Virus record (IMG/VR): IMGVR_UViG_3300045973_001103
Coordinates: 2,413-66,412 of that record
Strand: one strand, 5' to 3'
From: a virus
DNA: 64,000 nt
The notes beneath the pieces are model-generated. The model was not told the origin of the DNA, did no database searches, and saw only the letters and a program-made list of their open reading frames with translations. This document shows positions 1 to 15,777 of the stretch, in pieces (within the stretch, counting starts at the first letter, position 1; the number at the start of each line of letters is the position of its first letter). The position numbers were made by a program, and so were the translations under genes.

Positions 1-386
1 ACGGCCTTGTCGATTATTTTCAGGCCCTCAAGAAACGTAGGTTCCTTGGTGACGAGCTTAGTGGGCGCCTGCGTACCCGCCGCGATCTGCCGGAACTGTG
101 ACATCCACGCCGGCCCCATGAGCCGGCTGATCAAGCTGGCCGGGATCTCGGCCTTGGTTATGGCCCGATCCTGGGACACCGGGGCGCAGACATGCTGCTC
201 CAGGAACGTGAGGATCTCCGAGATCATCGGCTGCGGCAGGGGAAAATCGGGGCTGGTCCACTCCTCGTACAGGACCCCAGCTTCGCGGGTATACTTCATC
301 ACCAGGCGCAAAGTCATCGTTGTATGTATAAAACCCTCGTTGTCGCACGCGGTGATCGTGAGCATCATCACGGAGCCCCGGGGCAT
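1..386 (-). CDS. hypothetical protein (partial, runs off left edge)
   Basis: Hand-translated open frame MPRGSVMMLTITACDNEG... from ATG at 386, preceded by GGTGAGG SD; no stop before position 1; not in ORF track. Confidence 0.6.
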   Translation of the reverse strand, partial: MPRGSVMMLTITACDNEGFIHTTMTLRLVMKYTREAGVLYEEWTSPDFPLPQPMISEILTFLEQHVCAPVSQDRAITKAEIPASLISRLMGPAWMSQFRQIAAGTQAPTKLVTKEPTFLEGLKIIDKA

Positions 387-474
387 GGGAGCCTCACCAG
401 CCGGCTTCGGAGCCCACCACGGGCAGGATTGGGGCCCTCCGCCCTTGTTTAAATGTACGCACGCAATGCCCGGG

Positions 475-720
475 TTACAGTTTGCGCAATCGCTCATAAA
501 CCGCCTCCATGGTCGAAATCTGCTTCCCGAGGCAGCGGCCCCACACCTGGTAGCTTCTGGCCTCCCTGGGGGTCTTGGCCTCCATCTGGTGGATAAGGGC
601 CTCATAGCGCATCCGCTGAAGATTAGGCATCGTCATGGCGTAACGGACCCGGAAGGTAGCCTGCCAGCTCCCACCCAGCCGGTTCTCATCGCAGATCTTG
701 TTGAAGGCTTCTTCACTCAT
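475..720 (-). CDS. hypothetical protein
   Basis: 81-aa ORF overlapping the end of the upstream gene in a tightly packed leftward operon. Confidence 0.65.
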   Translation of the reverse strand: MSEEAFNKICDENRLGGSWQATFRVRYAMTMPNLQRMRYEALIHQMEAKTPREARSYQVWGRCLGKQISTMEAVYERLRKL

Positions 721-925
721 AAAAAGCGCAGTGCACCTCGCGGTGGACCCCCATCATCGAGCACTCTGTGAACCGGCAGCGCAGACAATGCCGGATCGGC
801 TTCATCCAGAACTGCATGTCCTGCTTGCTGCACACCTCGTAAGTGTGCCCGGGATTCCCGGTCGCACCGGTTACCGCGCCATTGCCGGCGGGGCTGCCCA
901 GGGTAGGTTGCGTTGGGTCTGTCAT
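713..925 (-). CDS. small Cys-rich hypothetical protein
   Basis: ATGA overlap with upstream ORF, AAGGAG SD, CLRC motif. Confidence 0.6.
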   Translation of the reverse strand: MTDPTQPTLGSPAGNGAVTGATGNPGHTYEVCSKQDMQFWMKPIRHCLRCRFTECSMMGVHREVHCAFYE

Positions 926-1119
926 TGGTCTGCTCCTTCGAACATGTATTTTAATTTTGCGCGGCGGTTGCGCGCGGTCTCAATAATATCCTCGTAGCCA
1001 ATGGTCGATTCGCAGGTGAAGCCGCAGTGCGGCACATCGCCAGGCTCGGGCACGTATGTGGCGCCGGGGCATTTATTGCACATGTCCCGCATCTCCTTGA
1101 GGGCTTCCTCAGCGGTCAT
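922..1119 (-). CDS. small Cys-containing hypothetical protein
   Basis: ATGA overlaps at both ends; CNKC...CGFTC. Confidence 0.65.
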   Translation of the reverse strand: MTAEEALKEMRDMCNKCPGATYVPEPGDVPHCGFTCESTIGYEDIIETARNRRAKLKYMFEGADQ

Positions 1120-1340
1120 AAATCCGGCGCCCCAAGATCCTTGGACATCCGAGCGTACTGAATCGCCTTGCGGATAAACCGCAGCTTACCTTTCTGGTCT
1201 TCTGGGAGGCAGGCGAGCGCCGCGGTGATATTGTTCTTCCAGCCCCAGTACAGGTACGGCTGCCGTCCCAGGCGGAAAACCACGGGCGGCCGCGGCGCGT
1301 CATGCCAGGGTATGCCCTCCGGCTGGTTGACCCATTTCAT
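1116..1340 (-). CDS. hypothetical protein
   Basis: Start moved to ATG 1340 (MKWVNQ), which forms an ATGA overlap with the upstream stop and has a GAGG SD. Confidence 0.6.
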   Translation of the reverse strand: MKWVNQPEGIPWHDAPRPPVVFRLGRQPYLYWGWKNNITAALACLPEDQKGKLRFIRKAIQYARMSKDLGAPDL

Positions 1341-1540
1341 TGATCGGCCGCCTCGATATCTCTCATTATACGCCGGTACATCCGGCCCAGCTTGATCCAC
1401 TTCTGGCATTCCCGGCTGTCGTCTTTACTGTCGATGGCCTTGCTGACCGCCTCGCAGAACTTGGCCTCGAGGACGGGCCGCAGCATGGCGTTCCCTAGCC
1501 GGCGGCCGGATTCCCGTGAAGGTGGTGGGAGGATGTTCAT
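1337..1540 (-). CDS. hypothetical protein
   Basis: ATGA overlaps at both ends. Confidence 0.6.
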   Translation of the reverse strand: MNILPPPSRESGRRLGNAMLRPVLEAKFCEAVSKAIDSKDDSRECQKWIKLGRMYRRIMRDIEAADQ

Positions 1541-1902
1541 GGTTTCTTCCTGCAGTGGGTGTCGTAATCTTCGCAGATCGTGTGACCGTTAAGCAAGCGT
1601 ATGTGGTTACATCCGTTGTGGTACTCCGGGCAATATGGCTGCATCCCGGCCGGGTTCTGACAGTACGCCCGGTTGGTACAGTGTTCCGCGGAGCACGCCC
1701 GGCACGTCTTCCCGCAGTTCCCGCAGGTGCCCGGTGGCATGCCGTTGGCCTTGCGCACACCGTCGGAATCCCGGTAATAGCTGCAGTGGACCAGCTCCTG
1801 GGGATTACCGGATAAGTCGCATTCCGGATTGCGGCAGCTGTAGCAATGGCAGATCGGTATCCCCGCGCGTAAACCCATCTGTGTGTCGCAGTATAATTTC
1901 AT
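1537..1902 (-). CDS. Cys-rich putative metal-binding protein
   Basis: 121 aa with many Cys clusters (CHCYSC, CGNCGKTCRAC); ATGA overlap, AAGGAG SD. Confidence 0.7.
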   Translation of the reverse strand: MKLYCDTQMGLRAGIPICHCYSCRNPECDLSGNPQELVHCSYYRDSDGVRKANGMPPGTCGNCGKTCRACSAEHCTNRAYCQNPAGMQPYCPEYHNGCNHIRLLNGHTICEDYDTHCRKKP

Positions 1903-2237
1903 CTGTCAGGCTCCTTGAGTTTGTTAACAATCGGCACCTGGGCCGGCGGATAATATTGCCAGCGGACCGCGTGCATGTACCCGGGGATTCCGCCCTGGTA
2001 CATGGTGCCGCCAACTGGCTCATGCAGCGCGGCGCCAATCCCGTCCACCCAGTAGCTGATCCACGCGCCGCCGGCCCAGCGGCGATACCACTCGTGGTCG
2101 TGGAAGATCATGTCGAGCTTTTCGCGGAACCAGTGGCGCTCGTACGCGTGGCAATGAAGGATCTGTCCCGGGACCGAGTTACAAATATCGGTGCGCGTAC
2201 AGCGGTGGCAGTACAAGATCTTAGTTTTCGGCGTCAT
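1899..2237 (-). CDS. hypothetical protein, paralog of 2234..2542; ends NKLKEPDR
   Basis: N-terminal CHRC; HEWYRRWAGGAWI resembles HRQWYRKFCGGEWI in the neighbour; ATGA overlaps. Confidence 0.7.
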   Translation of the reverse strand: MTPKTKILYCHRCTRTDICNSVPGQILHCHAYERHWFREKLDMIFHDHEWYRRWAGGAWISYWVDGIGAALHEPVGGTMYQGGIPGYMHAVRWQYYPPAQVPIVNKLKEPDR

Positions 2238-2542
2238 CTGTCAGGGTCCTTCAGCATATTCGCCGGCTTCCGCGCCGGGCGCCAGTACTCCCGGTCCTTC
2301 ACCCAGATATTCCCGGTGATGAACACCACGGTCTGCAGGCCCCAGCGCAGCCCGGTCGGCGGCCCGACCATCTGGTGGCAGTTGTACTGGATCCACTCCC
2401 CGCCGCAAAATTTTCTATACCACTGCCGGTGCGCCAGCATGCGGTCGAGGATAACCATGTACCAAACCCGCTTGTACCCGCTACAGGGCGGCCCGGCGCA
2501 GTAGTCCAGCTTCTCGCAGCCGCGACACCAGTGGAAGCTCAT
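2234..2542 (-). CDS. hypothetical protein, paralog of 1899..2237; ends NMLKDPDR
   Basis: CRGC...C motif, WYRxxxGGxWI motif, ATGA overlaps. Confidence 0.7.
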   Translation of the reverse strand: MSFHWCRGCEKLDYCAGPPCSGYKRVWYMVILDRMLAHRQWYRKFCGGEWIQYNCHQMVGPPTGLRWGLQTVVFITGNIWVKDREYWRPARKPANMLKDPDR

Positions 2543-2823
2543 CGGTCAGGGTCCTGTAGCTTGTCGACATACGCCTGGGCCGGCTTCAGCTTATCCACCC
2601 ACTGGTCCATGAACGTCCGCGCGCAGGTGTTGGAGAAATCATGCAGCTGATCCCGCGTCAGGCTCTTGGGCACCCAGGAGCGGTTTCGGCACTCGTCGAA
2701 GATGATCATGCCGATGCTGGCCTGGTAACTCCAGTACCAGGACCCCGGCCGCTTATCCCGGCGGAGCTGCCAGCGGACCCAGCTGACGGCCCAGTACGTG
2801 ATGTTGCCTATGATCCATTTCAT
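2539..2823 (-). CDS. hypothetical protein; ends DKLQDPDR
   Basis: ATGA overlaps at both ends. Confidence 0.7.
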   Translation of the reverse strand: MKWIIGNITYWAVSWVRWQLRRDKRPGSWYWSYQASIGMIIFDECRNRSWVPKSLTRDQLHDFSNTCARTFMDQWVDKLKPAQAYVDKLQDPDR

Positions 2824-2969
2824 CTGTCCGGACCCCAGAGCATGTTGTACTGCGGCCGCCGCAAAATTTGCTCAACGCCCCACAGCTGCTTGACGCAGTA
2901 AATCACCACGCCAGTCCCGCCAACTGCGAAGAAGATCGCTTCCGTCAAATTAGGTACAGGGCTCATCAT
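2820..2969 (-). CDS. 49-aa putative membrane peptide; ends NMLWGPDR
   Basis: Hand-translated MMSPVPNLTEAIFFAVGGTGVVIYCVKQLWGVEQILRRPQYNMLWGPDR; fills the gap exactly with ATGA overlaps on both sides; below ORF-track length cutoff. Confidence 0.65.
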   Translation of the reverse strand: MMSPVPNLTEAIFFAVGGTGVVIYCVKQLWGVEQILRRPQYNMLWGPDR

Positions 2970-3181
2970 TCCTGGTCCCGCTCTTCCGCAGGCACCGTCA
3001 GGTCCAGGGGCGGGCCCACGATCCAGTTCTTACATCCGGCCGGGATGAGCGTGAGCGGAACCACCCGCGCTTTTTCTTCGAGGCCTTTTGAGATCCACCA
3101 GCCGCACGCGGTTGGGAACACGTCCGTACCGGCGGGGCGATTATGGAAGCAGGTCCAGCAGCAGGGGTGTGTATCGCTCAT
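2966..3181 (-). CDS. small Cys-rich hypothetical protein
   Basis: CCWTC...C...C; ATGA overlap. Confidence 0.65.
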   Translation of the reverse strand: MSDTHPCCWTCFHNRPAGTDVFPTACGWWISKGLEEKARVVPLTLIPAGCKNWIVGPPLDLTVPAEERDQE

Positions 3182-4032
3182 CTGTCAGGGTCCCGCAGCT
3201 TGTTGGGGCGGTGGTCTGCCACGCGCATGTGCGCTTTCATCTTGGGCGGCCGGCACCACATGTTCTGGAACTTCTTCCAGGCTTTATCGTACTCCACCGG
3301 TGGGTCGGACTTATACAGCTGTGCGAAGGGCAGGCAGCCGGCGCGGTACAGGGCCTGAAGACGGTTCTCCTCCTCGACCACGTTCTTGCCTATGATCACG
3401 TAGCAGCGGATCTTCCACCGGGGAAAGCCGAATGCGGCCAGGCGCTGAATAGCCACCGCGGTGGTCGTGTAGTCTGCCGGCCGGTCGCAGGCCAGCCAGA
3501 TCTCAGCTATACGCTTGCGGATCTTGGCCAGGTCGGCTACCCTGGACTGGGTGAGGCGGCGCGACTCTATCCCGCCCCGCAGGCATATCTGCCGCTGGGT
3601 CGCCAGCATCGCCATGACCTTACCCCAGTGCTTATCGGACGCCGCCATCAGGTTGTTGTCCTGGATGACGTTGCCCGGCACGATCTCGGGCAGCTCCCGG
3701 AACTTACCCTCAATGCGCGGGACGAAGCAGTAGGAGCAGGCGTTGGGGCAGCCACGGGAAGTGAACACGATCCCGGGGCGCATGTACCGGCCGGGAATGA
3801 AATCGTCCGCGGCCGACAGGAATGCTGGTCCCCCGATCTTCACCACCTGGGCGCGGGTCAGCCAAGCCTTGGCCAATTCATGGGCGCGGTCCCGGTCCCA
3901 GGTGAAAGTGCACGATACATGAACCTCGTCGTAGAACGGGGTGGCCGGGGTGGGCTTATCGAAGTAGGCGTGCTCATCAGTGGGGCAGTAGGAAGTCTTG
4001 CGCGCGAAAACCCGGGCGAGAGGTGTGGGCAT
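3178..4032 (-). CDS. radical SAM protein
   Basis: TSRGCPNACSYC (CxxxCxxC 4Fe-4S motif); start placed at ATG 4032 because the TTG at 4068 is the -35 box of a consensus promoter; ends NKLRDPDR. Confidence 0.85.
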   Translation of the reverse strand: MPTPLARVFARKTSYCPTDEHAYFDKPTPATPFYDEVHVSCTFTWDRDRAHELAKAWLTRAQVVKIGGPAFLSAADDFIPGRYMRPGIVFTSRGCPNACSYCFVPRIEGKFRELPEIVPGNVIQDNNLMAASDKHWGKVMAMLATQRQICLRGGIESRRLTQSRVADLAKIRKRIAEIWLACDRPADYTTTAVAIQRLAAFGFPRWKIRCYVIIGKNVVEEENRLQALYRAGCLPFAQLYKSDPPVEYDKAWKKFQNMWCRPPKMKAHMRVADHRPNKLRDPDR

Positions 4033-4039
4033 GTCGACC

Positions 4040-4068
4040 ATTGTATCAAACTGGGCCGGGTCTGTCAA
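4040..4068 (-). promoter_or_regulatory. sigma70-type promoter for the leftward operon (probably leaderless transcript)
   Basis: TTGACA-17 nt-TACAAT on minus strand; ATG 4032 follows the -10 box after 7 intervening nt. Confidence 0.8.
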
Positions 4069-4089
4069 GCGAGGCCATGTGTCAGTTCA

Positions 4090-4112
4090 TATCAATTTGT
4101 GTGAAATTGATA
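4090..4112. promoter_or_regulatory. operator-like palindrome
   Basis: TATCAATTT-GTGTG-AAATTGATA, perfect 9-bp inverted repeat about 20 nt upstream of the -35 box. Confidence 0.5.
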
Positions 4113-4426
4113 CATCAACCTGGGCCGGCAAGCCCGGGGCATGTACTAATTGGTACTAATTTCCCCCAAATTAGTAGGTGGGCCGGGCATAGGTATTTCC
4201 CAGTTCAACTACAGAATATGCGTTAAACTATAGCAAAATGGATAGATAAACACTAATTTTGCTTGATTTCCGTCAAAAAGGGCCGGAATCTAGCGGAAAA
4301 GGGCCTAATAGGGCCCGGGGCAGCGCAAGGCCCGGAAGGCCGGGGATCGGACCAAACCGCTGGTGGCGGGCCGCCAGGACCACCCTATCGGTCCAAAAAC
4401 AGGCTCCAACCTGGGAAATCGGGCGG

Positions 4427-4676
4427 CACGGAACCACACTTCCGTGTGTTTGAGGGAATGGACAAGGGTGTGAGCCCGAGTCCTGACCTGTATTTCAACC
4501 CCGGATCGGTCTGCTGCCAGCGGCGCTCCGGCTGTTCTCCCCAAGCCGCTGGCAGCTGGCCTCTGGGTGCCATAGGCACTCACATACTTCACTAATTAAC
4601 AACCATGCTCTTAGAAAAGAGAATGGAGCTGCATGGTTGTAAATTAAAGAACTAAAGCCTGTAGGGCTTTAGTTCT
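4427..4676. other. cluster of inverted repeats (candidate structured RNA or origin)
   Basis: Stems 4427-4446 (7 bp), 4513-4556 (12 bp), 4565-4581, 4593-4646 (16 bp, 1 mismatch), 4648-4676 (12 bp). Confidence 0.55.
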
Positions 4677-4787
4677 GGAAGAGGGGAGGGGATGCACAAA
4701 TATTTTCACGCTGGTGCACGAAGATACTCCTCTACTGATGTACATAATAGTGAAACAAAAAAATTTCGCGACAGCGCGCTTCGCGCA

Positions 4788-5126
4788 TTAAAGCGAGGGA
4801 ATATGGGAGATCTGGGAAGGCCAGGCAACTGTCAGCAGCCGGGTTCGGCAATGCGCGCAAAGATAGAGAGGCTTCTCCGCCTTCTGCAGCGCCAGGCCCA
4901 GCTTCGGATGTGGGACCAGGTCGAGCGTGATCATGGTGATGCGCAGGTGGCCGCGGCGCTTCGTCGCCATGTAGAATTTGAAGTCGTTCAGGCGGGCCGT
5001 GAGCACCTTAAACGTCGCGAGGTGCATATGTATCAGCATGTGCCGGCAGCCCCACACCCCGTCATGTATACCAGAAGCCTCGGAGTAGATCGGGATGATT
5101 ATGCGTTTTTGCGATAGCTGTGTCAT
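4788..5126 (-). CDS. hypothetical protein (uncertain)
   Basis: 112-aa ORF just downstream of the leftward promoter at 5166-5194; weak SD; competing + strand ORF. Confidence 0.35.
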   Translation of the reverse strand: MTQLSQKRIIIPIYSEASGIHDGVWGCRHMLIHMHLATFKVLTARLNDFKFYMATKRRGHLRITMITLDLVPHPKLGLALQKAEKPLYLCAHCRTRLLTVAWPSQISHIPSL

Positions 5127-5165
5127 GCTCGTATGGGTAAATTGTCACGATTTTGTAACCCCGAT

Positions 5166-5194
5166 ATGATACCAGCGCGGAACAGTAAAGTCAA
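5166..5194 (-). promoter_or_regulatory. sigma70-type promoter (leftward)
   Basis: TTGACT-17 nt-TATCAT on minus strand. Confidence 0.65.
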
Positions 5195-5209
5195 GACCCC
5201 AGAATTTTG

Positions 5210-5238
5210 TTGACTTTTACGAAACCATTTGATAAAAT
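5210..5238 (+). promoter_or_regulatory. sigma70-type promoter for the rightward early arm
   Basis: TTGACT-17 nt-TAAAAT, followed by GGAGG SD and ATG 5263. Confidence 0.8.
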
Positions 5239-5262
5239 AATCCGCGAAAGAACGGAGGACCT

Positions 5263-5460
5263 ATGGAAGAAACTATCACCAAGTGCGATGCGTGCGGTCA
5301 AGTCATTGGCGGTCGCCGAAAGAAAGTCCGCGTCGTAGATTCGGTTCAGTACTTCTTCCTTCACCAGTGGGTCAAGCTGGACATCTGTCACGAATGCTGG
5401 ATCGGGCTGAAGGCGGTAGCTGCCTCCATCACCCTGGCCAACAAGGCGCGCGGAATTTAA
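5263..5460 (+). CDS. small zinc-ribbon protein
   Basis: CDAC...CHEC; GGAGG SD. Confidence 0.75.
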   Translation: MEETITKCDACGQVIGGRRKKVRVVDSVQYFFLHQWVKLDICHECWIGLKAVAASITLANKARGI

Positions 5461-5468
5461 AGGACAAC

Positions 5469-5762
5469 ATGGCAACTCAAAAATCAGTGAAATCCCTTCA
5501 AGCCGAGATCTCCAAGCTCAACAAGATCATCCACACCCTCAACCAGAAATACACCTTCAAGTACGAAAAGAACCGGCCGATCATGATCGTCCAGATCGGT
5601 GACGCGGCGACCGGCTGGATCGGTGACCCCGAGTCGGTGGCCTTCCTCATCCGTGAGCTGAAGCAGGCGCGCGTCGATGACACGCACAACATCGTCATCT
5701 ACCACTACGCCGCCAAGTTCACGATCGTGCCGGCCTCCGGGCTGCGCAGGACCTTCCCGTGA
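5469..5762 (+). CDS. coiled-coil + portal-clip-like domain protein (paralog of 6284..6673)
   Basis: Start MATQKS at 5469 after AAGGA SD; IMIVQIGD...W...RVDDTHNIVIYH aligns with the 6284 product and the portal segment. Confidence 0.7.
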   Translation: MATQKSVKSLQAEISKLNKIIHTLNQKYTFKYEKNRPIMIVQIGDAATGWIGDPESVAFLIRELKQARVDDTHNIVIYHYAAKFTIVPASGLRRTFP

Positions 5763-6271
5763 GCTACTTCCCCTCCCTCAACTTCATGCAGCTGGGGTTC
5801 TTCGGCAAGAAGGCCCAGGCCGCGGCCGGCGGCGCCCCGGACAATCCGAACGGCTACGCCAACATCAAGCGCTTCTTCGGCTTCAAGACCAAGCCGCTCC
5901 AGGAGCCCACAGAGCTGTTCAATGTCGGCTCCCGCGGCGGTGAGAAGCCTATGCTGCTGCCGGTGAAGCCGCCACCTCCCCCGCCCCGGTGGAAGTGCCA
6001 GTTCAAGGCGGACCTGGAGATGCGCGACAACCGAAACTGCCAGGTCATTATCACTCGCGACTGGGCCAAAGACCAGGACCGCATGACCCAGGAAGAACTC
6101 GAGAAGAAGTACGGGGCGGACTTCAGGCGGTGGTGCGCCACGCTGAAGCGGGAGATCAAGACCAAGAGATTTCATGACAGCGACCGCGCGCTCATCCGCA
6201 CCGCGGATGTCAGCTACGTTTTGTTCAGCATACGGCAGTGGGTGGATGACACCGACGCCGGACCTCGGTAA
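5759..6271 (+). CDS. hypothetical protein
   Basis: GTGA overlap, 170 aa. Confidence 0.7.
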   Translation: MSYFPSLNFMQLGFFGKKAQAAAGGAPDNPNGYANIKRFFGFKTKPLQEPTELFNVGSRGGEKPMLLPVKPPPPPPRWKCQFKADLEMRDNRNCQVIITRDWAKDQDRMTQEELEKKYGADFRRWCATLKREIKTKRFHDSDRALIRTADVSYVLFSIRQWVDDTDAGPR

Positions 6272-6283
6272 GGAGAACTGAAA

Positions 6284-6673
6284 ATGCCCCAGAACATAAT
6301 ATTGGCCAAACTGCGCAAAGACATAGCGGTACGTGATCAGATGATCCGCGCCCGTGACTCATGGGTCAAGGACCGTGACAAGCACATCGCCAACCTGAAT
6401 AAAGGCCTGGCCGAGCAGGCACAGACCGTTATCAAGCTGCGCGCGGACCTGGAGCGCCGGGATAAGGTCATTGAGGCCTACCAGATCAAGAACGAGTTCA
6501 TCTCCAAAGCTGGGCGTGAAACCATGATCGTGAAGGTCGGCTCTGTCGAGCACAAGTGGATGCCGAGCCCTGCGCAGTTCGCCGCGATAACCAAGCGGAT
6601 CAAGAACTCCAAGATCGATGAGAAATACAACATCCTGCTGACCCACGCATTCACCGAGGCGCACATACTTTAA
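6284..6673 (+). CDS. coiled-coil + portal-clip-like domain protein
   Basis: AAGGAG SD; C-terminal 46 aa share 18 identities with portal residues encoded at 37866-38000. Confidence 0.8.
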   Translation: MPQNIILAKLRKDIAVRDQMIRARDSWVKDRDKHIANLNKGLAEQAQTVIKLRADLERRDKVIEAYQIKNEFISKAGRETMIVKVGSVEHKWMPSPAQFAAITKRIKNSKIDEKYNILLTHAFTEAHIL

Positions 6674-7527
6674 TGGCCATCGCGCGCGACTACCAGCCGG
6701 AGTATCAGCCGCCCATTAAGAAGGCGAAGGCGGTCACCAACGGGTGGACCCACGGCGGGCTCATCACGGATCTCTGTGAGAACGTGAACGGCACGGACTA
6801 CATCTGCGGCGAGGTGTACGCCGGCAGCCGCTTCCTGGAGCGCCGGCCGTGCCCTGACGCGCTGCGCGTGCGCATGTCCTACTCCCGGCCGGACTTCGCC
6901 ATCTACGAAATCAAGGTGTCCAGGCCTGACTTCTTGTCGGATCTCCGTTCGGACAAGTGGCAGACCTACCTCCCTTACTGCTCCCGCTTCTACTTCGCCA
7001 CCCCTGAGAAAGGGGTCGCCACGATTGAGGATATCCCTTTCGTAGCCGGCTGGATGGTCCGCGGCGAAAAGGGCTGGCGCACGATCAAGACGCCCAAGGT
7101 GCGGCAGTTTGAGCCGGACTTCCACTACGCCCTGGCCCTGCTCATCAGCGAGCAGAAGTACCGGGTGCGGGCCGAGAACCTGGCGGCAGCCAACCGCAAG
7201 ATGGCACATGGCCATAACGTCAGCTGGAGCAAGAAGGTTATTGATCGCGTGCGCGTCACCGAAGAGGCCATCAAGAATAACTGGGAGTCGCGCAAGAAGA
7301 TCATGTCGGCCAAGGCTGCCATCAAACGGCACTTCGGCATCGACGTGGGTGAATACTGGCGCTTCAACGACATGGATTCCATCTTCAAGGACATGAAGAT
7401 GGGGCTCGACGCGGCCGACGTAACCCAGATGCGTGCGAACCTAAAGATGCTCTCGGGGATTCTTGACCGCGTGGCCGGGAAGGAGAAGGCTCCCGAGACC
7501 ATCGATTGGAACGCCAAGAAGGAATAA
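6673..7527 (+). CDS. MmcB-like PD-(D/E)xK nuclease family protein
   Basis: PDAL...YEIKVSRPDFLSD...KWQTYLPYCSRFYFATP. Confidence 0.75.
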   Translation: MAIARDYQPEYQPPIKKAKAVTNGWTHGGLITDLCENVNGTDYICGEVYAGSRFLERRPCPDALRVRMSYSRPDFAIYEIKVSRPDFLSDLRSDKWQTYLPYCSRFYFATPEKGVATIEDIPFVAGWMVRGEKGWRTIKTPKVRQFEPDFHYALALLISEQKYRVRAENLAAANRKMAHGHNVSWSKKVIDRVRVTEEAIKNNWESRKKIMSAKAAIKRHFGIDVGEYWRFNDMDSIFKDMKMGLDAADVTQMRANLKMLSGILDRVAGKEKAPETIDWNAKKE

Positions 7528-7958
7528 TGGATACCAGCAAAGTTTACATCGAGATGTGCACCGCGGCCTATGAGCTCCAGGACGCTTGGGTTCCTCTGCC
7601 CTGGGACTATATCTTCTGCCGCGTGGAGCATTCTGTCACCTGCCTGCTGCCGGCCTCACCCGCCCAGGTGCGCAACACCCATTGGCTTGACGGCACGGTC
7701 CTGCGCAATGCCGAGTGCTGCGGCTCCAAGCGAGAGCACGTGTGGCTGCCGCGGCAGGACCAGATCCCGGCGATGATGCACACACAGAAGCACAGGACCT
7801 CCACCTTCCTGCTGCGCTTCGCTAAATTCTCCTGCTACAAGCCGCATGCGTCCATCGAGCAACTTTACGTGCGATACTGGATGGCACGCCACTCCAAGAA
7901 GACCTGGGTCCGCGGCGAGTGGAAGCACAGCCTCAAAGAAAAATATGGACAAAGGTAA
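7527..7958 (+). CDS. hypothetical protein, paralog of 7945..8325
   Basis: MDTSKVYIEMC...HVWLPRQDQ...SIEQL; TAATG overlap. Confidence 0.75.
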   Translation: MDTSKVYIEMCTAAYELQDAWVPLPWDYIFCRVEHSVTCLLPASPAQVRNTHWLDGTVLRNAECCGSKREHVWLPRQDQIPAMMHTQKHRTSTFLLRFAKFSCYKPHASIEQLYVRYWMARHSKKTWVRGEWKHSLKEKYGQR

Positions 7959-8325
7959 GCAGTACATCTATATGTGCGCCCGGGCCCGCACATTCCGCAA
8001 GACCTGGATGCCTGCGCTTGGTGACTTCTATTACGACAAGGTCACCCAGGGCGTAGGTGTGGTCTACAAGCTCCCGTTCGATCGCACAGATCACGTGTGG
8101 TTGCCGCGCGCGGATCAGCTGCTAGATCTCCTGGCCGCGCGCTATAACGTGGCGTTCAAGCCGGCGTACACCCTCAACAAGTTTCACCAGTACATCATGG
8201 CCAGCACGCCCCGGTATTCCGGATCCATTGAGCAGATGCTGCTGCAGTTCATGATGCTCGAGGTTTACCAGAAAGTGTTCTTGAGTCAGAACTGGGTGGC
8301 CAGCGCCCCGTCGATAGAATTGTGA
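7945..8325 (+). CDS. hypothetical protein, paralog of 7527..7958
   Basis: MDKGKQYIYMC...HVWLPRADQ...SIEQM. Confidence 0.75.
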   Translation: MDKGKQYIYMCARARTFRKTWMPALGDFYYDKVTQGVGVVYKLPFDRTDHVWLPRADQLLDLLAARYNVAFKPAYTLNKFHQYIMASTPRYSGSIEQMLLQFMMLEVYQKVFLSQNWVASAPSIEL

Positions 8326-8339
8326 TATAAGGAGTTGCT

Positions 8340-9131
8340 ATGCTTGAAGCCCTGATGTGCGGTGACGTGATGGAGCAGCTGAAATTAATCCCTGACAATT
8401 CAGTAGATTTGATTGTGACCAGCCCTCCATACAACGTCGGAATCAAGTACGACAACTACGACGACGCGCGCACCTGGGACAACTATTACTGCTGGTGCGG
8501 CGCCTGGCTCGGACAGCTGCTTCGGGTCATGAAGCCCGACGGTCGCTGCTGCATCAATATGTACTTAAGTTTAGGTACATCTAAATTCCGGACCGCACCC
8601 CTCATGACAATAAACCAGTGGGCCGTGGCCCAGGGATTCAAGCACCACTCCATGGCACTGTGGTATGACGTCACCTTGACCAAGCTCACCGCGTGGGGCA
8701 GCTGGCTGTCCGCCTCGGCGCCCTACGTCTCCGCGCCCTTCGAGGGCATCCTGATCCTGTACAAGGACCAGTGGAAGAAACAGAACAAGGGCGTGTCCAC
8801 CACAACCAAAGAGGAGTTCCGTGAGTTCGCCTGCGGGGTGTGGAAGTTCGCTCCCAATCGCCGCAGTGACCACCCGGCTCCGTTCCCCGAGAAGCTGGCC
8901 GCCAGGTGTATCAACGGCCTGTCCTACGTCGGAGATACCGTCCTGGACCCCTTCCTGGGCACCGGAACGACCGCAATAGCCGCTAAAAAGGCCTCCAGGG
9001 GCTATATTGGCATCGATATAAGCCCAGATTACATCGAAAAGGCCAAAGTTAAGCTGGCCGCTGTGGTCGTGCCGCCTCCGGTTCCCTCCCCTAAAAAGGC
9101 ACCAAAACTGGCCCCTGAAGCCGAAAAATGA
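8340..9131 (+). CDS. DNA amino-methyltransferase (N4C/N6A, beta class)
   Basis: TSPPY catalytic motif precedes HPAPFP and VLDPFLGTGTT SAM-binding motif. Confidence 0.92.
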   Translation: MLEALMCGDVMEQLKLIPDNSVDLIVTSPPYNVGIKYDNYDDARTWDNYYCWCGAWLGQLLRVMKPDGRCCINMYLSLGTSKFRTAPLMTINQWAVAQGFKHHSMALWYDVTLTKLTAWGSWLSASAPYVSAPFEGILILYKDQWKKQNKGVSTTTKEEFREFACGVWKFAPNRRSDHPAPFPEKLAARCINGLSYVGDTVLDPFLGTGTTAIAAKKASRGYIGIDISPDYIEKAKVKLAAVVVPPPVPSPKKAPKLAPEAEK

Positions 9132-9478
9132 TGGAAAAGTTCATCCTCACGCTGCTTAAGACCACGGTATACCTCTATGACTCGGATTCCACCAAGCACC
9201 TCATCCGTGGCACGGTCTTATTGCCGCCCACCGACCGCAAGATCCTCATCACCATCAACAAAAAGCACGACGTCGCCGCTATCTTCCCGGAGGATCTCTC
9301 CGAGCCCACTACAACAGAGGCGCTATCACCTCTACTGCTGGTTCACTTCGACGCAAAGTCGCAGAAGTTTTGTGGGATAGTGATCACCGGCCTCAACGCG
9401 TTCATCATGGACTGGAAGGTTAAAGGTGGCATAGACTCCATCCTGCCGGCGCTCCGGAGATTCGCTGGTCGCTATTGA
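9128..9478 (+). CDS. hypothetical protein
   Basis: ATGA overlap, 116 aa. Confidence 0.6.
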   Translation: MMEKFILTLLKTTVYLYDSDSTKHLIRGTVLLPPTDRKILITINKKHDVAAIFPEDLSEPTTTEALSPLLLVHFDAKSQKFCGIVITGLNAFIMDWKVKGGIDSILPALRRFAGRY

Positions 9479-9503
9479 CACGGCGACGTGAACCATATAA
9501 CAT
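9475..9503 (+). promoter_or_regulatory. sigma70-type promoter
   Basis: TTGACA-17 nt-TAACAT. Confidence 0.55.
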
Positions 9504-9522
9504 CATGGGGCAAGGAGAAACT

Positions 9523-9708
9523 ATGCCAGCAACAACAACCAGATTTACTTACTGCCGCAAGGGGCATGCGCCGATGTTTCACGTAGGGAAGAATTGCCCT
9601 CTGTGCGCGCAGCAGAAAGCTACCGTCACAATAGCCAAAGAATATTTCAAGGTGTCTTCTATGGTTAACCAGCTTCTCGCGAAGCTCCGCATTAAGAAGG
9701 CCGCTTAA
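9523..9708 (+). CDS. small zinc-finger-like protein
   Basis: AAGGAG SD before ATG 9523; CRKGH...CPLC. Confidence 0.6.
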   Translation: MPATTTRFTYCRKGHAPMFHVGKNCPLCAQQKATVTIAKEYFKVSSMVNQLLAKLRIKKAA

Positions 9709-9715
9709 GGACAAC

Positions 9716-10132
9716 ATGATTTCTTTATCTGTGGTGAAGATCAAAGTCAAGGACGATAAGTATATGCTCACCCGTCATGAGCTGGACCAGGTGCGCAAGC
9801 TGATGCACAGCATCAAGGCCGCCGATCCGAAAGAGACGAAGAAAAATCTCGACGCCGTCCTGGGCGTGAAGCAGCACTTCGAGAACAAGAAAGAATACTC
9901 CCTGGTGCTTGACACTATCAAGTTCGGCGAGGTCTTCTACGTCTGGAGCACCCGGCAGCCCCTGAACCAGCAGGAGACCGAGCACATCACCAAGACTGTA
10001 CTCTGCGCCTTGAGCGCGCCCAACACGCTGTTGACCTTCCCGGACTACATCATGATCTCGTCCACTCCTCCGCCGGCCCGGACAAAGGTTAAACCTCGGG
10101 CGAAGAGGAAGAAGAAAGATGCCGACAAATAA
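9716..10132 (+). CDS. hypothetical protein
   Basis: AAGGA SD; basic C-terminal tail; start could be 9764. Confidence 0.6.
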   Translation: MISLSVVKIKVKDDKYMLTRHELDQVRKLMHSIKAADPKETKKNLDAVLGVKQHFENKKEYSLVLDTIKFGEVFYVWSTRQPLNQQETEHITKTVLCALSAPNTLLTFPDYIMISSTPPPARTKVKPRAKRKKKDADK

Positions 10133-10700
10133 TACCCTGCCGCTCCACTGGTCGGACTACGCGGAGCTGGCCGCGCATGCGCATAGCCTTAATGAGAAGG
10201 CCCCGATGCTGTTTGCTATCCAGAGCTGGTACCACTCTGCGCATGACTACGCCGCCGACAAATTATCCATGCGCCCGTCGTCAGGTAAGTTGAGCGAGAT
10301 CTCCTCGGCGCTGCGCTCACGCCTCGAGGACTGGGCGATAGTGCCCACCTGCGCGTACACGCGCGCGACCCGGCAGATTAACGTCCGTCTCACATTTGCG
10401 ACGGAGAACGTAGTGGATCCTGCTTTCGTTTACAGGGATGATGTGCAGCTTGCGGCGCACCTCTCGTTGCAATTAAATCCTGCGTATGATATAATAACTC
10501 GGTACCTTCAAGTAGCCAGCTCCACGATAATGGCCGTCAGGGCCCTGGAAATGCGGCCGCCGGTCACAAGTTCGGACATGCAGTACACCGGCGTGTACCT
10601 CACGCACTATCCGTGGAGCGAGAAGGAACAGAAGCATATAAGGGTGGGGATGCCTTTCGCCATGTCAGTCTTCCTAACTTATGACAACTTCGATTTTTAA
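10119..10700 (+). CDS. hypothetical protein
   Basis: 193-aa ORF in operon context. Confidence 0.65.
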   Translation: MPTNNTLPLHWSDYAELAAHAHSLNEKAPMLFAIQSWYHSAHDYAADKLSMRPSSGKLSEISSALRSRLEDWAIVPTCAYTRATRQINVRLTFATENVVDPAFVYRDDVQLAAHLSLQLNPAYDIITRYLQVASSTIMAVRALEMRPPVTSSDMQYTGVYLTHYPWSEKEQKHIRVGMPFAMSVFLTYDNFDF

Positions 10701-10717
10701 AACGCAGGTAGGGGTAG

Positions 10718-11041
10718 ATGGGAATAACAGCGCAGGACTTAATGGCCTTCGTTTCCGCACGGGAACGTCTGCTGAAAATCATACACCGAGAAATCGGCAG
10801 CTGTAACTTTGGTAAAGGTTACGAGGGTATTGTTTCAATAACTTTCCCCTCTTGTCTCGACGAGCATTTTGGAGACCACTCCTGTATTGTATCGCTCGAG
10901 GCAGCCAGGCAGTTTACGCGTAATAATGTGTGGTCCGGGGTCAGCTTATCCGCCGTCGTAGATAAGATGAACAAGGACATTGACCTGTATGAAAAAAATC
11001 TTACTCGACACACCGATCAACCCGATAACCACGGGTCTTGA
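10718..11041 (+). CDS. hypothetical protein
   Basis: 107-aa ORF with purine-rich SD. Confidence 0.5.
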   Translation: MGITAQDLMAFVSARERLLKIIHREIGSCNFGKGYEGIVSITFPSCLDEHFGDHSCIVSLEAARQFTRNNVWSGVSLSAVVDKMNKDIDLYEKNLTRHTDQPDNHGS

Positions 11042-12497
11042 TAAAATAGCTCCGCTTTTGCTTACGTCCTTCGGTCCGGACAAGGGCACCATTTTCTGTG
11101 GAGGTAAAACTGTGAGCCTATACTCCGGTCTGTTAACTCTCATCAAGCACGACGATCCTTTTGAGAACATAGCCATCAAGCTCGTGGAGGACATGGCCGC
11201 TGACGTGTACGCCAAGGCCGGCTCCGGGGTCAGCCTGGCTGCTGTGCTTACCGTGGGGCTTGTCCGGGCCTCCCGGCAGCTTATAGTCGCAGGCTACCAC
11301 CCGCGGCGCGTCCACGACTGGCTGGAGACCATTGGCGCTGACTTTGCTACCCACCTGCAGGGTGAGGTTGATGCGGTTAAGAGCTGGGGCCTGCCGGGGC
11401 AGGAAGAGCAGATCATGAAAGCGGTGGCTATCACCGCGGCCAAGGATGAGAAGGTAGGGGCGCTCATCGGCGACATGTGCTACCAGATCGGACAGTTCGC
11501 CCACATCGACATAGTCCAGGATGACATCCCCCAGGTCCGCGTAGAGTACCGCAATGGTTTCACCTTCAAGACAGCGCCGCTGTCTTATCACTTCCTCAAA
11601 GGCAAGCGCAAGGAGTTTGCCAGCCCCAAGATCATATTCACTGACGGTGCCTTCGACGACGTTTCATCCATGGTCAAGATCCTCATGGCTGCTAACAAGG
11701 CCGAAGTGCCGCTGATCGTTATGGCCAACAGCTTGAGCCAGGACGTCATGTCACTGCTTACGCACAATCATAATATCGGCGCGTTAGACATCATTGCTAT
11801 CAAAGCACCCTCATTCAGCTTCGGGCAATTCCAGGCGCTGGAGGACCTGGCGATGATCACCGGCGGGATTCCCGTCAGCTACGCCATGAGCTCCAAGCCC
11901 ACTGTGGAGCACCTGGGCACAGCTCCCCGCGTGGTGGTGGGTCAGGATTACTGTACGATATACTCCACCAATCCTGTGCCGGAAGAGTACATCAAGCGCA
12001 TCAAGCGGCAGACCGCCAAGGTGCGCAGTGACGTTCTGAAGATGGCCGTCAATGAGCGCGTCAGCAATCTGCTCGGGAAGGCCGCTGTGCTGCGCGTGGG
12101 CGGCTACACAGAGCGTGAGCGGCAGGAAGGTTACCAGAAGGTAGAGACCGCGGTGCACGCCGTCCGGGGCGCCCAGAGCGAAGGGTACATCCCCGGCGGC
12201 TACCAGGTATTCCGCAAGTTCCCTTTCCGCGCAAACCCAGACATTCCTACGCCGTTGTATACTGGCATGCAGTTCCCGTATACTGCCCTTATGGCTAACT
12301 ATACTGGCGACGTGCCTTCACTAAACCGGATCACCAATAACCCGGTGGAGCTGTTCAACGTCAGGACCGGCAAGATCGAGAACATGCTTGATGCCGGAGT
12401 AATCGACTCGGTGAAGTCCATCCGCGTCGCCGTGGAATCCGCCATCTCTACAGCTAAGATCTTGGCGATCACCGGCGCCATAGTCACGGAGGCATGA
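10989..12497 (+). CDS. GroEL-like chaperonin with degenerate ATPase motifs
   Basis: TSFGPDKG, AIKAPSFSFGQFQALEDLAMITGG, ERVSNLLGKAAVLRVGG, AGVIDSVKSIRVAVESA match the GroEL scaffold; GDGTTT replaced by GSGVSL. Confidence 0.85.
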   Translation: MKKILLDTPINPITTGLDKIAPLLLTSFGPDKGTIFCGGKTVSLYSGLLTLIKHDDPFENIAIKLVEDMAADVYAKAGSGVSLAAVLTVGLVRASRQLIVAGYHPRRVHDWLETIGADFATHLQGEVDAVKSWGLPGQEEQIMKAVAITAAKDEKVGALIGDMCYQIGQFAHIDIVQDDIPQVRVEYRNGFTFKTAPLSYHFLKGKRKEFASPKIIFTDGAFDDVSSMVKILMAANKAEVPLIVMANSLSQDVMSLLTHNHNIGALDIIAIKAPSFSFGQFQALEDLAMITGGIPVSYAMSSKPTVEHLGTAPRVVVGQDYCTIYSTNPVPEEYIKRIKRQTAKVRSDVLKMAVNERVSNLLGKAAVLRVGGYTERERQEGYQKVETAVHAVRGAQSEGYIPGGYQVFRKFPFRANPDIPTPLYTGMQFPYTALMANYTGDVPSLNRITNNPVELFNVRTGKIENMLDAGVIDSVKSIRVAVESAISTAKILAITGAIVTEA

Positions 12498-13030
12498 TGC
12501 ACGACCCTGAGTACAAGGCCTGGGTATACAACTGGTGCTGGAAGAACGTTATAGAGGATGAGCTGGAGCCGGGCAAGCCTTATCACAAGTCCCATTATGA
12601 AGGTAAGTGGCACATGGTCGATGTCTACACCATACACTTTAAGACCAAGCACTTCCGTGGGTTTTATCTGAACAAGGACGGAAAGAAGGACACCTCGGAG
12701 TTCAGTATCGGCAAGCAAGGAATCCTGCTGCCCTTCACCGGCCAGCCCGATAAAAACAAGCGCAAGATATTCGCCGGAGACGTGGTTCAGTTCTATACTC
12801 GCACGCGTGGCGTGGACGGTCCAGGCCTTATTCGCGAGGTGGTGTGGGATCCTGCCGGCCGCTGGCTCCCTTTCCTGTGCGACACGTTCATCCAGGACGA
12901 GCTTGGCGACTGGTTCGAGTTTGATGAGGCAACCAGATTTGAGGTTATCGGGAACGTGTATGAGAACCCCGAGCTGAAGAAAAAGATCGCAGATCAGGAC
13001 GCGATATATGAAAAGGAAAGGAGATTCTAA
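12494..13030 (+). CDS. YopX family protein
   Basis: FTGQPDKNKRKIFAGDVV...FEVIGNVYENPEL. Confidence 0.85.
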   Translation: MMHDPEYKAWVYNWCWKNVIEDELEPGKPYHKSHYEGKWHMVDVYTIHFKTKHFRGFYLNKDGKKDTSEFSIGKQGILLPFTGQPDKNKRKIFAGDVVQFYTRTRGVDGPGLIREVVWDPAGRWLPFLCDTFIQDELGDWFEFDEATRFEVIGNVYENPELKKKIADQDAIYEKERRF

Positions 13031-13275
13031 TGCAAGAACAAACTGGCGAAGTTAAACACCTCACCCCCGAGGAGAAGCAGAACATACAGGACCTGCCCCG
13101 GGGCCGCCGCGGCGTCAAGGTCAACGGCAACTGGTGGATAGAAACCAAAGTAGAGCCTACTGTGAAGCAGCTCCAGTCCGGCGTTAAAGGCTGGCACCTC
13201 TGCCTCTGCGGCTCCGGCAAGAAGTTCCGCGAGTGCTGCCGCGTCAAGACTCCGTTCGTAAAGAGGACCCTGTAA
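13030..13275 (+). CDS. SEC-C metal-binding motif protein
   Basis: CLCGSGKKFRECC. Confidence 0.8.
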   Translation: MQEQTGEVKHLTPEEKQNIQDLPRGRRGVKVNGNWWIETKVEPTVKQLQSGVKGWHLCLCGSGKKFRECCRVKTPFVKRTL

Positions 13276-13919
13276 TGCCCTGCATCGACGTGAAAATGGG
13301 TGTAATAGGCAGTGGTAAGGACTACCAGGCCAAACTTCACATCCAAAAAGACCCCAGCTACGTCCAAATCGACTTCAAAGACGCCCTCATCGACATGTGC
13401 GAGGACATTATCGGCTTCCCGATCCGGGCCCGGTACGACGAGTTCAAGGAGTACATTATCGGGTTTCAGCACCCAAATGTGGCCTTGGCAGGCAATTTAC
13501 AGCGGGATAGCCTGGGCCTGTTCAACAAACAGTGCGTCCACGACTACCCTTACGCCATGACCGGCCGCCGGCTGCTCCAACGTGTGGGCACTGACGCCAT
13601 GCGCAAGCGAGATCCCGACTACTGGACCAACGCCTGGGCACAGTCAGCCATCGCGGCGCTCCAGGCAGGTAAGAGCGTGTGCGTGGGCGACTGTCGCTTC
13701 CTCAATGAGATGCACGTAGTTGAGGTTCTCGGAGAGCAGATGGGCATCGGCGCCACTATCACCTTCTGCGACTTCCATTCCAAGCGCTACGACGCTAACG
13801 CCGAGCACGAGAGTGAACGTCTGGCCCAGCAGATCCTGGCTGCAGACTGGAAAGATCTCCAGCAGATCTCCTACGCCGACGCACTCGCCGCGGCAGAGAA
13901 GGCAATCGTCCATGGCTAA
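13275..13919 (+). CDS. deoxynucleoside monophosphate kinase
   Basis: GVIGSGKD P-loop, RRLLQRVGTD, DCRFLNE; TAATG overlap. Confidence 0.85.
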   Translation: MPCIDVKMGVIGSGKDYQAKLHIQKDPSYVQIDFKDALIDMCEDIIGFPIRARYDEFKEYIIGFQHPNVALAGNLQRDSLGLFNKQCVHDYPYAMTGRRLLQRVGTDAMRKRDPDYWTNAWAQSAIAALQAGKSVCVGDCRFLNEMHVVEVLGEQMGIGATITFCDFHSKRYDANAEHESERLAQQILAADWKDLQQISYADALAAAEKAIVHG

Positions 13920-14484: not shown

Positions 14485-14692
14485 CGAACCTAATGGCAAC
14501 AGCGCAGGCGCACCTGGCGGCAGCACGGCAACAAACCCTTGCTTGTTCATGAAGCTGCCCAAGTGCATGCGTCAAGATACGACCAAGCGCGTCGACGTCA
14601 CGATCTGTAACGCGTGCATCGCCGGCCGCACCGAAGGCCACCTCTTCGAAATAAAGAAGAAGCTGGTCGGTGACAACAACCAGAGGAATTAA
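14477..14692 (+). CDS. small Cys-containing protein
   Basis: AGGAG SD; C...C...CNAC. Confidence 0.6.
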   Translation: MNNEPNGNSAGAPGGSTATNPCLFMKLPKCMRQDTTKRVDVTICNACIAGRTEGHLFEIKKKLVGDNNQRN

Positions 14693-14693
14693 C

Positions 14694-15392: not shown

Positions 15393-15400
15393 GAGGATCT

Positions 15401-15766: not shown

Positions 15767-15777
15767 GGAGTCCTAAC

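Follow-up and report, generated by a model that had tools for sequence, protein, structure and literature searches.

The DNA analyzed here (the window; 64,000 nucleotides) comprises bases 2413-66412 of the 66,412-base IMG/VR virus record IMGVR_UViG_3300045973_001103 (G000), which stems from a pond metagenome and represents an uncultured phage. Near its beginning lies a minus-strand operon (475-4068) in which eleven small genes follow a radical SAM gene and all 11 junctions are ATGA-type stop/start overlaps. Five genes of this operon, and a single plus-strand gene about 15 kb away from it, end with variants of the same eight-residue peptide, followed directly by a TGA that is part of an ATGA. 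This gene-end motif is the subject of the present report. The operon, which holds five of the six motif copies, and the copies themselves are as follows.

3178-4041, minus strand: radical SAM domain protein, first gene of the operon, 287 aa from ATG 4041 (reading frame open from 4068)
475-3181, minus strand: chain of eleven small genes (g71, g49, g94, g102, g112, g121, g67, g74, g65, g70, g81) with ATGA-type overlaps throughout
3178-3204, minus strand: motif copy 1, NKLRDPDR plus TGA, end of the radical SAM gene; the ATG of g71 lies within the ATGA
2820-2846, minus strand: motif copy 2, NMLWGPDR plus TGA, end of g49 (49 aa, hydrophobic); the ATG of g94 lies within the ATGA
2539-2565, minus strand: motif copy 3, DKLQDPDR plus TGA, end of g94; the ATG of g102 lies within the ATGA; the sole copy with CGA as Arg codon
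2234-2260, minus strand: motif copy 4, NMLKDPDR plus TGA, end of g102; the ATG of g112 lies within the ATGA
1899-1925, minus strand: motif copy 5, NKLKEPDR plus TGA, end of g112; the ATG of g121 lies within the ATGA
18324-18350, plus strand: motif copy 6, DRLIGPDR plus TGA, end of g72; ATGA present

The six shared gene-end tails are confirmed as real. A first-pass annotation, made from the sequence alone, had placed these peptides at these six gene ends, all closing with GAC(A/C)GATGA, and this proved correct in every copy. Equally correct were the codon variants which it listed (Leu CTC/CTG/CTA, Pro CCT/CCG/CCC, Arg AGA/CGA) and a Shine-Dalgarno (SD)-like GG at fixed spacing, which is found at positions -12/-11 from the ATG in 6/6 copies. 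The peptide consensus of the tail is [ND][KMR]Lx[DEG]PDR.

Repetition of this kind is far beyond chance. When the whole 66,412-base record was scanned, the pattern CCNGAYMGATGA had one forward and five reverse matches, compared to 0 and 0 in a reversed control. With up to three mismatches, the consensus CTNNNGGACCCTGACAGATGA had 5 matches, compared to a mean of 0.05 in 100 shuffled sequences, none of which reached 5. A de novo repeat search recovered the five minus-strand copies unprompted as a 30-nt family. The pairwise identity of the copies is 71% in the 24 nt before the stop codon versus 30% in the next 24 nt upstream. Within the genome, GAC[AC]GATGA is confined to the six copies. Parts of the motif do not recur above chance elsewhere in the genome (CCTGACAG occurs 6 times, 3 of them inside the motif), and a dispersed DNA site was therefore rejected as an explanation.

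Degenerate forms of the tail close three further genes of the small-gene chain, and a weak relative closes the conserved gene g164, the last codons of which border on g72.

1337-1357, minus strand: degenerate copy IEAADQ plus TGA in ATGA, end of g67
1116-1142, minus strand: degenerate copy KDLGAPDL plus TGA in ATGA, end of g74
922-945, minus strand: degenerate copy MFEGADQ plus TGA in ATGA, end of g65
18100-18135, plus strand: weak motif relative SMLYLDPTGHR plus TGA, end of g164, with the nucleotide pattern ATGCTG..GACCCN..ACAGATGA

The genes that carry the tail code for proteins of 49-296 aa. Two of them, g112 (1899-2237) and g102 (2234-2542), are paralogues (32% identity, E-value 6e-14) and are still related after their tails have been trimmed (4e-10). 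No other pair that includes a tail-bearing protein scored better than 0.16 after trimming, and the sole other trimmed pair below 0.01 is g121/g70 (0.002), both of which lack the tail. Because g102 and g112 are paralogous, the tail is carried by five independent gene bodies rather than six, so that the "six mostly unrelated genes" of the first-pass annotation need to be reduced by one. Between g102 and g112, 6 of the 8 tail residues have been kept despite the overall identity of 32%. The small proteins of the chain have no family match in Pfam or PHROGs, g112 has no homologue among 5.8 billion proteins, and no usable match to g94 was found in Atlas. In the called frames of the chain, GC3 is 0.68-0.87, which indicates that the small genes are real coding frames. 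A 17-nt direct repeat (16/17 identical; gene strand AG[AC]AAATTTTGCGGCGG) occurs at 2400-2416 in g102 and at 2856-2872 in g49. It is read in different frames (RKFCGG and EQILRR) and forms an AT-rich island within these GC-rich genes; a rough chance estimate for the region is about 0.02.

Among the tail-bearing proteins, only the radical SAM protein could be compared to a known family. It matches Pfam PF04055 weakly (2e-4) and phrog_9298 with an E-value of 3e-18, and its family is large among phages, with 516 homologues at E-values of 0.001 or better. The family core ends with ...W.RPAA.KAHMK, beyond which the tails vary. A similar tail was seen in 1 of the 119 homologues listed, namely the nearest one (P0002, 65% identical), which ends with DKFKDPDL. 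In the P0001/P0002 pair, four of the eight motif residues are identical and three are similar, whereas only 1/7 residues is identical in the preceding 7-residue linker. In an AlphaFold model of the radical SAM protein (computed with 12 homologues), the final helix extends to residue 275, and pLDDT is below 50 at residues 277-287, a low value which in part simply results from the absence of the tail in the alignment. The tail thus lies in a disordered context beyond the last helix; it is a lineage-specific add-on beyond the conserved radical SAM fold. For g112, the model has a mean pLDDT of 36.7 and is unusable.

The possibility that the tails are connected with the conserved end of the radical SAM proteins (RPAA.K...) was also considered and rejected: an HMM built from the five other tails reached at most 1.4 bits on the 119 homologues and -0.8 bits on the reversed homologues, a difference that is not significant. 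Another branch of the family (P0010, P0036, P0043, P0053, P0054, P0091, P0110, and others) has a C-terminal extension of its own (...GTDFR.F.T), which starts beyond the same core end as the present tail. Judged from these sequences, members of the radical SAM family seem to acquire lineage-specific tails at their C-terminus.

The level at which the motif is conserved was addressed by a simulation in which the same number of changes per copy was placed randomly, without creating stop codons, in 20,000 runs. At least four invariant residues were obtained in 0.01% of the runs (p = 1e-4) and the observed BLOSUM sum in 0.005% (p = 5e-5); at least eight synonymous codon changes arose in 0.9% (p = 0.009) and at least 12 third-position changes in 5% (p = 0.05). 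When the motif is compared by reading frame, identity is 0.58 in frame versus 0.37 and 0.41 in the other two. All eight motif positions are kept in the g72 copy, with conservative or synonymous changes, though the gene that follows has an SD sequence of its own. Given that changes from copy to copy spare the residues encoded, selection most likely acts on the peptide itself.

Several features concern the nucleotides themselves. The Asp codon next to the terminal Arg is GAC in 6/6 copies. The Pro codon is CCT in 4/6 copies (1, 3, 4, and 5), a codon that accounts for 18% of the Pro codons of the phage; in these four copies, CCTGAC places a TGA in the downstream frame, two codons before the ATG. 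For Arg, the tail uses AGA and CGA alone; in the phage as a whole these are the least frequent Arg codons (2% and 1%, respectively), and no others fit the ATGA overlap. This codon choice was counted in favour of constraint on the peptide. We conclude that peptide and nucleotide levels are both constrained. Synonymous variation had initially been taken as a hint at peptide selection; the simulation and the frame comparison bear this out, with the qualification that the nucleotide sequence is under constraint as well.

Queries with DnaB, RecA, and the radical SAM protein all reached a single near relative, the 47,274-base IMG/VR record G001, and a query with an MmcB-like gene found no relative among metagenome contigs or genome contigs. 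G001 is syntenic with the window over 180-47600, and the best tblastx segments have about 60-90% identity across most core genes. The layout is alike: small genes linked by ATGA overlaps form a chain behind the radical SAM gene, and the gene ends of this array are KKLGIL, GWEGK, EAKKS, GATPS, and KFKAGL. The motif does not occur in G001: a loosened pattern matches once, inside a gene on the opposite strand, which corresponds to the level of the reversed control. It is likewise absent from the window's own plus-strand ATGA junctions, which are A-rich. Since the ATGA array of G001 and these plus-strand junctions do without it, the motif is not produced by the combination of SD sequence and ATGA.

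All motif-bearing small genes are absent from G001, and the sole small gene of the array with a homologue there is g65 (40% identity over 57 residues). The G001 homologue (L062 4204-4359; G001 44204-44359) is the start of an ORF of about 215 codons; g65 of the window stops after 65 residues, in the degenerate tail MFEGADQ. The homology of the two radical SAM genes breaks right after KAHM/KSHC, about 14 codons before the stop codon. As this break lies upstream of the tail, the tail belongs to the phage-specific block.

The plus-strand copy is found in the replication module, where the difference between the two phages has the form of a gene cassette.

18132-18350, plus strand: cassette gene g72 of the replication module (an ORFan of 72 aa), with the 8-nt direct repeat ACAGATGA on both sides
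19151-20245, plus strand: phage-encoded RecA (Pfam PF00154, 1e-86), 0.8 kb downstream of g72

The two ACAGATGA flanks are located at 18128-18135 and 18343-18350, and this repeat corresponds to the last 8 nt of the motif. In G001, g72 is missing and g164 runs straight into g119. There, g164 ends with ...CACAGATAA (SMLYLDPSGHR plus TAA); in the window it ends with ...CACAGATGA and is followed by g72, which ends with ...GACAGATGA. This difference may have arisen by insertion or by deletion. ATG 18347 in the ATGA of copy 6 opens the downstream frame, yet the G001 orthologue starts six codons later, with its own GGAGG, and in the window AGGAGG is found 5 nt before ATG 18365. The native start after g72 is thus probably ATG 18365, 18 nt downstream, and a start within the ATGA is doubtful there. 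The first-pass claim that the next gene starts in the ATGA holds for the five minus-strand copies and probably not for copy 6.

Beyond this record, the motif was searched for at several levels. Junctions were counted in 81 loci or records, namely G000, G001, and 79 loci with a radical SAM homologue; three or more alike junctions occur only in G000 (6), the maximum elsewhere being 2. Among the 80 IMG/VR loci with radical SAM homologues (including G001), none has the motif at a gene end, apart from one chance PDR end. When IMG/VR was scanned with the DNA pattern, single matches were obtained in 51 stretches, and in 14 of these the match is located between ORFs of at least 50 codons. No IMG/VR contig has two pattern matches, and 51 single matches are close to a rough chance estimate. 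At the protein level, all three hits of a tail profile among 1.84 billion representatives are proteins of the record itself, and the same applies to all five hits among the 632 candidates of a word-index search in 5.8 billion proteins; an eight-residue motif is hardly able to reach significance in such searches, so that they show the restriction only weakly. The motif scan of the genome and its relatives, which had been proposed initially, thus found six copies in the record and none in the 80 homologue loci, G001 included. The tail does not appear to be a general phenomenon; as far as can be judged from these searches, it is restricted to this phage lineage.

With respect to signals in the RNA, the predicted folds at the six junctions have z-scores between -1.07 and +0.64 relative to shuffles, and there is no shared hairpin. 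As the junction folds are no better than shuffles, an explanation by RNA structure was rejected. A promoter/terminator scan of 1-6000 found neither at the five minus-strand junctions, the repeat search found no inverted-repeat pairs at the junctions, and no integrase family was detected among the 27 different proteins scanned (a subset of the genes of the record).

According to CheckV, the 66,412-base record is 35% complete, which would correspond to a full genome near 190 kb. The window encodes a GroEL-like chaperonin of the phage's own (10989-12497, plus strand; phrog_5725, 1e-60), DnaB helicase, an SbcC-like protein (21416-23605, plus strand), family A DNA polymerase, large terminase, and portal protein, as well as a primase-type zinc ribbon and the RecA already mentioned. 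A megablast search of GenBank phages with window 1500-9500 gave no match; the best GenBank phage match to the portal protein (tblastn) is Bacillus phage G, with 25% identity. In the source run (X1), a 25-kb contig spans window 1-16212 with 1 difference over 16,212 bases. The same run holds a second, related phage, represented by an 8,556-base contig (depth 10.5, compared to 18 for the present phage); this contig is about 80% alike in parts within 385-7713 and skips 385-3245, which is the whole small-gene array. From a second pond study (X2), five 151-base contigs are listed within 635-8696, with 0-1 differences and low depth.

Some further observations concern the operon itself. The product of g121 (1537-1902, minus strand; 121 aa) is very Cys-rich, has no family match, and is the protein noted above as weakly similar to g70 (713-925, minus strand). 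CxxC-type motifs open several other proteins of the array. A promoter-like sequence is located at the operon head.

4040-4068, minus strand: sigma-70-like promoter match (TTGACA, 17 nt, TACAAT; 11/12, with TG), a consensus match only

This match overlaps the called radical SAM start: the TTG at 4068 belongs to the -35 element and ATG 4041 overlaps the -10 element. The radical SAM gene may perhaps start at ATG 4032, on a leaderless or nearly leaderless mRNA.

The motif resembles several known systems in part. In integrons, the 3'-end element of promoterless, co-directed cassettes is the attC site, an imperfect inverted repeat which folds and serves as the cleavage site of an integrase. The present array is similar in that co-directed small genes each have a conserved 3'-end element; it differs in that neither a fold nor an inverted-repeat pair is found at the junctions and no integrase among the neighbours scanned. 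C-terminal linear motifs on unrelated proteins are exemplified by clamp-binding or SSB-type tails and by C-terminal degrons. Like these, the present tail is short, disordered, terminal, found on unrelated folds (five unrelated bodies), and better conserved than the linker that precedes it, with conservation at the residue level against a variable background. Unlike these, it is physically tied to a gene junction, and we know of no C-terminal linear motif which its sequence fits. Boundary sequences, finally, are known from gene borders in different lambdoid phages and are not known as a coding tail repeated within one genome.

For mosaic phages, short homology at gene borders has been proposed as a target of general recombination that creates mosaic joints (PMC3029335). 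Short homology at gene borders is shared by the present motif; conservation at the peptide level is not mentioned in the available part of that paper. The promoter-early stem-loops (PeSLs) of T4-type phages are non-coding elements with about 100 bp of conserved sequence that combine a sigma-70-like promoter with a terminator hairpin (PMC2839356). As with PeSL cassettes, short conserved repeats are found at the borders of ORFans in a variable region, and the element carries expression signals for the gene that it flanks (PMC2839356). Also, an ORFan is present between two copies in one phage and a single junction in its relative: g72 compares to G001 as ORFan192 of RB49, located between two PeSLs, compares to the single PeSL in phi1 (PMC2839356). 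Flanking of ORFans that differ between relatives, a feature of PeSLs, is seen for g72 and for the motif-bearing small genes, with one relative available for comparison. Differences are that the present unit comprises 24-27 nt, is located inside the upstream gene, encodes an octapeptide, and carries signals that would be translational rather than transcriptional; no promoter-like match exists at the five minus-strand junctions and no stable fold at any of the six. Because it lacks promoter and hairpin and is coding, the motif belongs neither to the PeSLs nor to the boundary sequences.

The motif shares with termination-reinitiation coupling the 4-nt stop-start overlap, an SD-like motif in the upstream gene, and a co-directed chain of genes (PMC6728339). 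The ATGA overlap between co-directed genes is present in 6/6 copies, with the start at copy 6 probably 18 nt downstream. Generic coupling does not need a conserved spacer or peptide, and genes are coupled without the motif in G001 and at the window's plus-strand ATGA junctions. The closest known systems are thus PeSLs and boundary sequences with respect to shuffling, ATGA termination-reinitiation with respect to expression, and C-terminal linear motifs with respect to a tag. A literature search, which left supplements outside its scope, yielded no report of a stop-start overlap with a conserved peptide attached to it, in agreement with the initial impression that this is not a described element. 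The finding is real and not ordinary.

We tentatively favour, at somewhat less than even confidence, the explanation that the motif is a portable gene-end unit which combines a coupling junction with a selected C-terminal tag and has been spread by duplication and recombination. The unit would comprise 24 nt and the stop codon, would be specific to this phage lineage, and would have two jobs. In the RNA, it would be a translational-coupling junction made up of the SD-like GGR, a fixed 9-nt spacer, and the ATGA stop/start overlap. As a coding sequence, it would add an unstructured octapeptide to whichever protein precedes. Two routes of spread can be envisaged, tandem duplication (g102, g112) and recombination, which would have grafted the unit onto the radical SAM core, g49, g94, and g72; cassettes with the unit at their borders may then be gained or lost, as in g72 versus G001. 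For a set of unrelated early proteins, the tail may be a common C-terminal tag for docking or turnover which puts all of them under a single partner. This explanation draws on the repetition beyond chance, the unrelated gene bodies, the position of the tail outside the fold, the lineage restriction, the peptide-preserving substitutions, and the one motif-flanked indel. That the recA gene of the phage adjoins the g72 site at 0.8 kb was also counted in its favour.

The first-pass annotation, whose interpretation is supported in part, had listed a C-terminal targeting or degradation tag and cassette shuffling at a microhomology site among its three suggestions, with no preference for any of them. 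A role of the peptide is supported indirectly, by the peptide-preserving changes, the better conserved frame, and the unstructured nature of the add-on. For cassette shuffling, support is slender but direct: the g72 insert bounded by ACAGATGA and the absence of the motif genes from G001 are in favour, and the position of the radical SAM homology break, about 14 codons upstream of the stop codon, is not. The refuting results which it had named were found in part: the frequency of the motif is far above the level set by SD and ATGA constraints, which speaks against refutation, and the nearest relative does lack the motif, so that the outcome is mixed.

A number of points weigh against the portable unit. 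With respect to recombination, the radical SAM homology break lies upstream of the motif and not inside it; the g72 indel is a single case seen with one relative; and the 8-nt repeat is weak on its own, given that a second, meaningless 8-mer repeat exists in the same 451 nt. No joint at a motif site turned up among the source-run contigs, albeit contigs drop rare variants. With respect to the tag, P0002 and g74 end in Leu rather than Arg, which is a radical change for a C-terminal tag; and the nearest relative, G001, manages without the motif. That no protein outside the record detectably carries the tail weighs little either way. CCT in 4/6 copies points to conservation at the nucleotide level or to gene conversion, and the ATGA has been kept in g72, where it is not needed. 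Finally, the simulation assumes independent descent from the consensus, and uneven constraint at the nucleotide level would also lift two of its four measures.

The main rival, which we consider possible, is that the junction alone matters. The 24 nt would be kept as the initiation region of the next gene (A-rich stretch, SD-like GGR, spacer, ATGA), with the peptide as a passenger. A recombinant with a new upstream gene must end in frame in the old 3' end, and unrelated genes would thus inherit the same tail. This fits with the ATGA and the fixed-distance GG in 6/6 copies and the ATGA-type overlaps at 11/11 operon junctions. The minor codon CCT in 4/6 copies and GAC in 6/6 suggest conservation at the nucleotide level, and the R-to-L changes in P0002 and g74 speak for this rival as well. 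The retention of the rare AGA and the TGA in g72, despite the SD sequence of the next gene, is expected for descent as a DNA unit. However, genes are coupled without the motif sequence in G001 and at the plus-strand junctions. The codons for Leu, Asn/Asp, and Lys/Met/Arg are located upstream of the SD-like GGR, and to our knowledge no initiation role can be named for them. In addition, variation at synonymous sites is above chance (p 0.009 to 0.05), conservation is clearly better in the real frame than in either alternative frame, and the g72 copy keeps its eight motif positions where a role as ribosome-binding site is not needed.

An improbable alternative, akin to the third first-pass suggestion of a termination-reinitiation module that uses the nascent peptide, is a co-translational device, in which the nascent tail, the rare AGA/CGA codon, and the UGA would slow termination at the overlap and in this way set the share of ribosomes that reinitiate on the next gene. 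The tail is located directly on the UGA within the ATGA in 6/6 copies, this stop codon is preceded by AGA or CGA, which are the least used for Arg, and conservation at the peptide level is seen. In E. coli, rare Arg codons before the stop codon and the last two residues of the chain affect termination. Nevertheless, when the tail profile was compared to solved chains at E-values up to 10, no arrest peptide was found, the one match (0.54) being to a non-tail part. Arrest of the TnaC type is typified by a C-terminal Pro in the P site at UGA and a conserved Trp about 12 residues upstream. Here, the last residue is Arg in 6/6 copies, with Pro at position -3, and the nearest upstream Trp is found 5 to 26 residues before the end, at a different distance in each protein. 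The likeness to this family was set aside because the terminal Pro is absent. A ribosome that pauses on the start codon would be a hindrance to initiation and not a help, and the codon rarity refers to the usage of the phage itself and not to the tRNA pool of its host. In addition, the words "nascent" and "C-terminal" do not occur in the available text of a 2025 review on translational coupling (PMC12548453).

It is very unlikely that the tails are follower peptides, as in RiPP-like systems, by which the radical SAM enzyme recognizes small Cys-rich substrates. The setting is suggestive, as the small proteins encoded behind the radical SAM gene include several Cys-rich ones and share a terminal peptide. 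This reading fails because the enzyme carries the tail itself, a tailed gene (g72) is located 15 kb away in the replication module, and nothing similar exists elsewhere in the enzyme family, with the motif in 0/80 enzyme-homologue loci and a junction repeated three or more times in 0/79 outside G001. Furthermore, Pfam gives only the weak Radical_SAM match, with no SPASM or peptide-recognition domain, and the size range of the tailed proteins (49-296 aa) does not fit. Chance, plain paralogy, or an assembly artefact are hardly credible: 2/6 genes are indeed paralogous and single pattern matches do turn up in further phage contigs (the 51 stretches mentioned above), but there are 5 matches versus 0.05 expected, no other locus exceeds 2 alike junctions, five unrelated gene bodies carry the tail, and the region is contained in the 25-kb source-run contig with its single difference over 16,212 bases.

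A more far-reaching version of the portable unit, which we likewise consider possible, is a tag-and-couple system, in which the octapeptide would be recognized by a single partner, be it a host protease, a chaperone, or a hub protein of the phage, and would be welded to the coupling junction. Any cassette that recombines into the junction would then be expressed and tagged automatically. Unrelated early ORFan proteins would have a common fate, and the array would be an evolvable landing pad for genes.

Accessory regions of phages are rich in small ORFans, the turnover and control of which are poorly understood. The unit would join three things that are usually kept apart: a coupling signal, short homology for cassette swaps, and a common C-terminal peptide. 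If only the junction is under selection, this would be a clean natural case of a coupled ribosome-binding site that forces the same tail on unrelated genes. If the tail is a real tag, it would point to a single host or phage factor that handles a set of early proteins, and would provide a handle to find that factor and to assign functions to ORFans.

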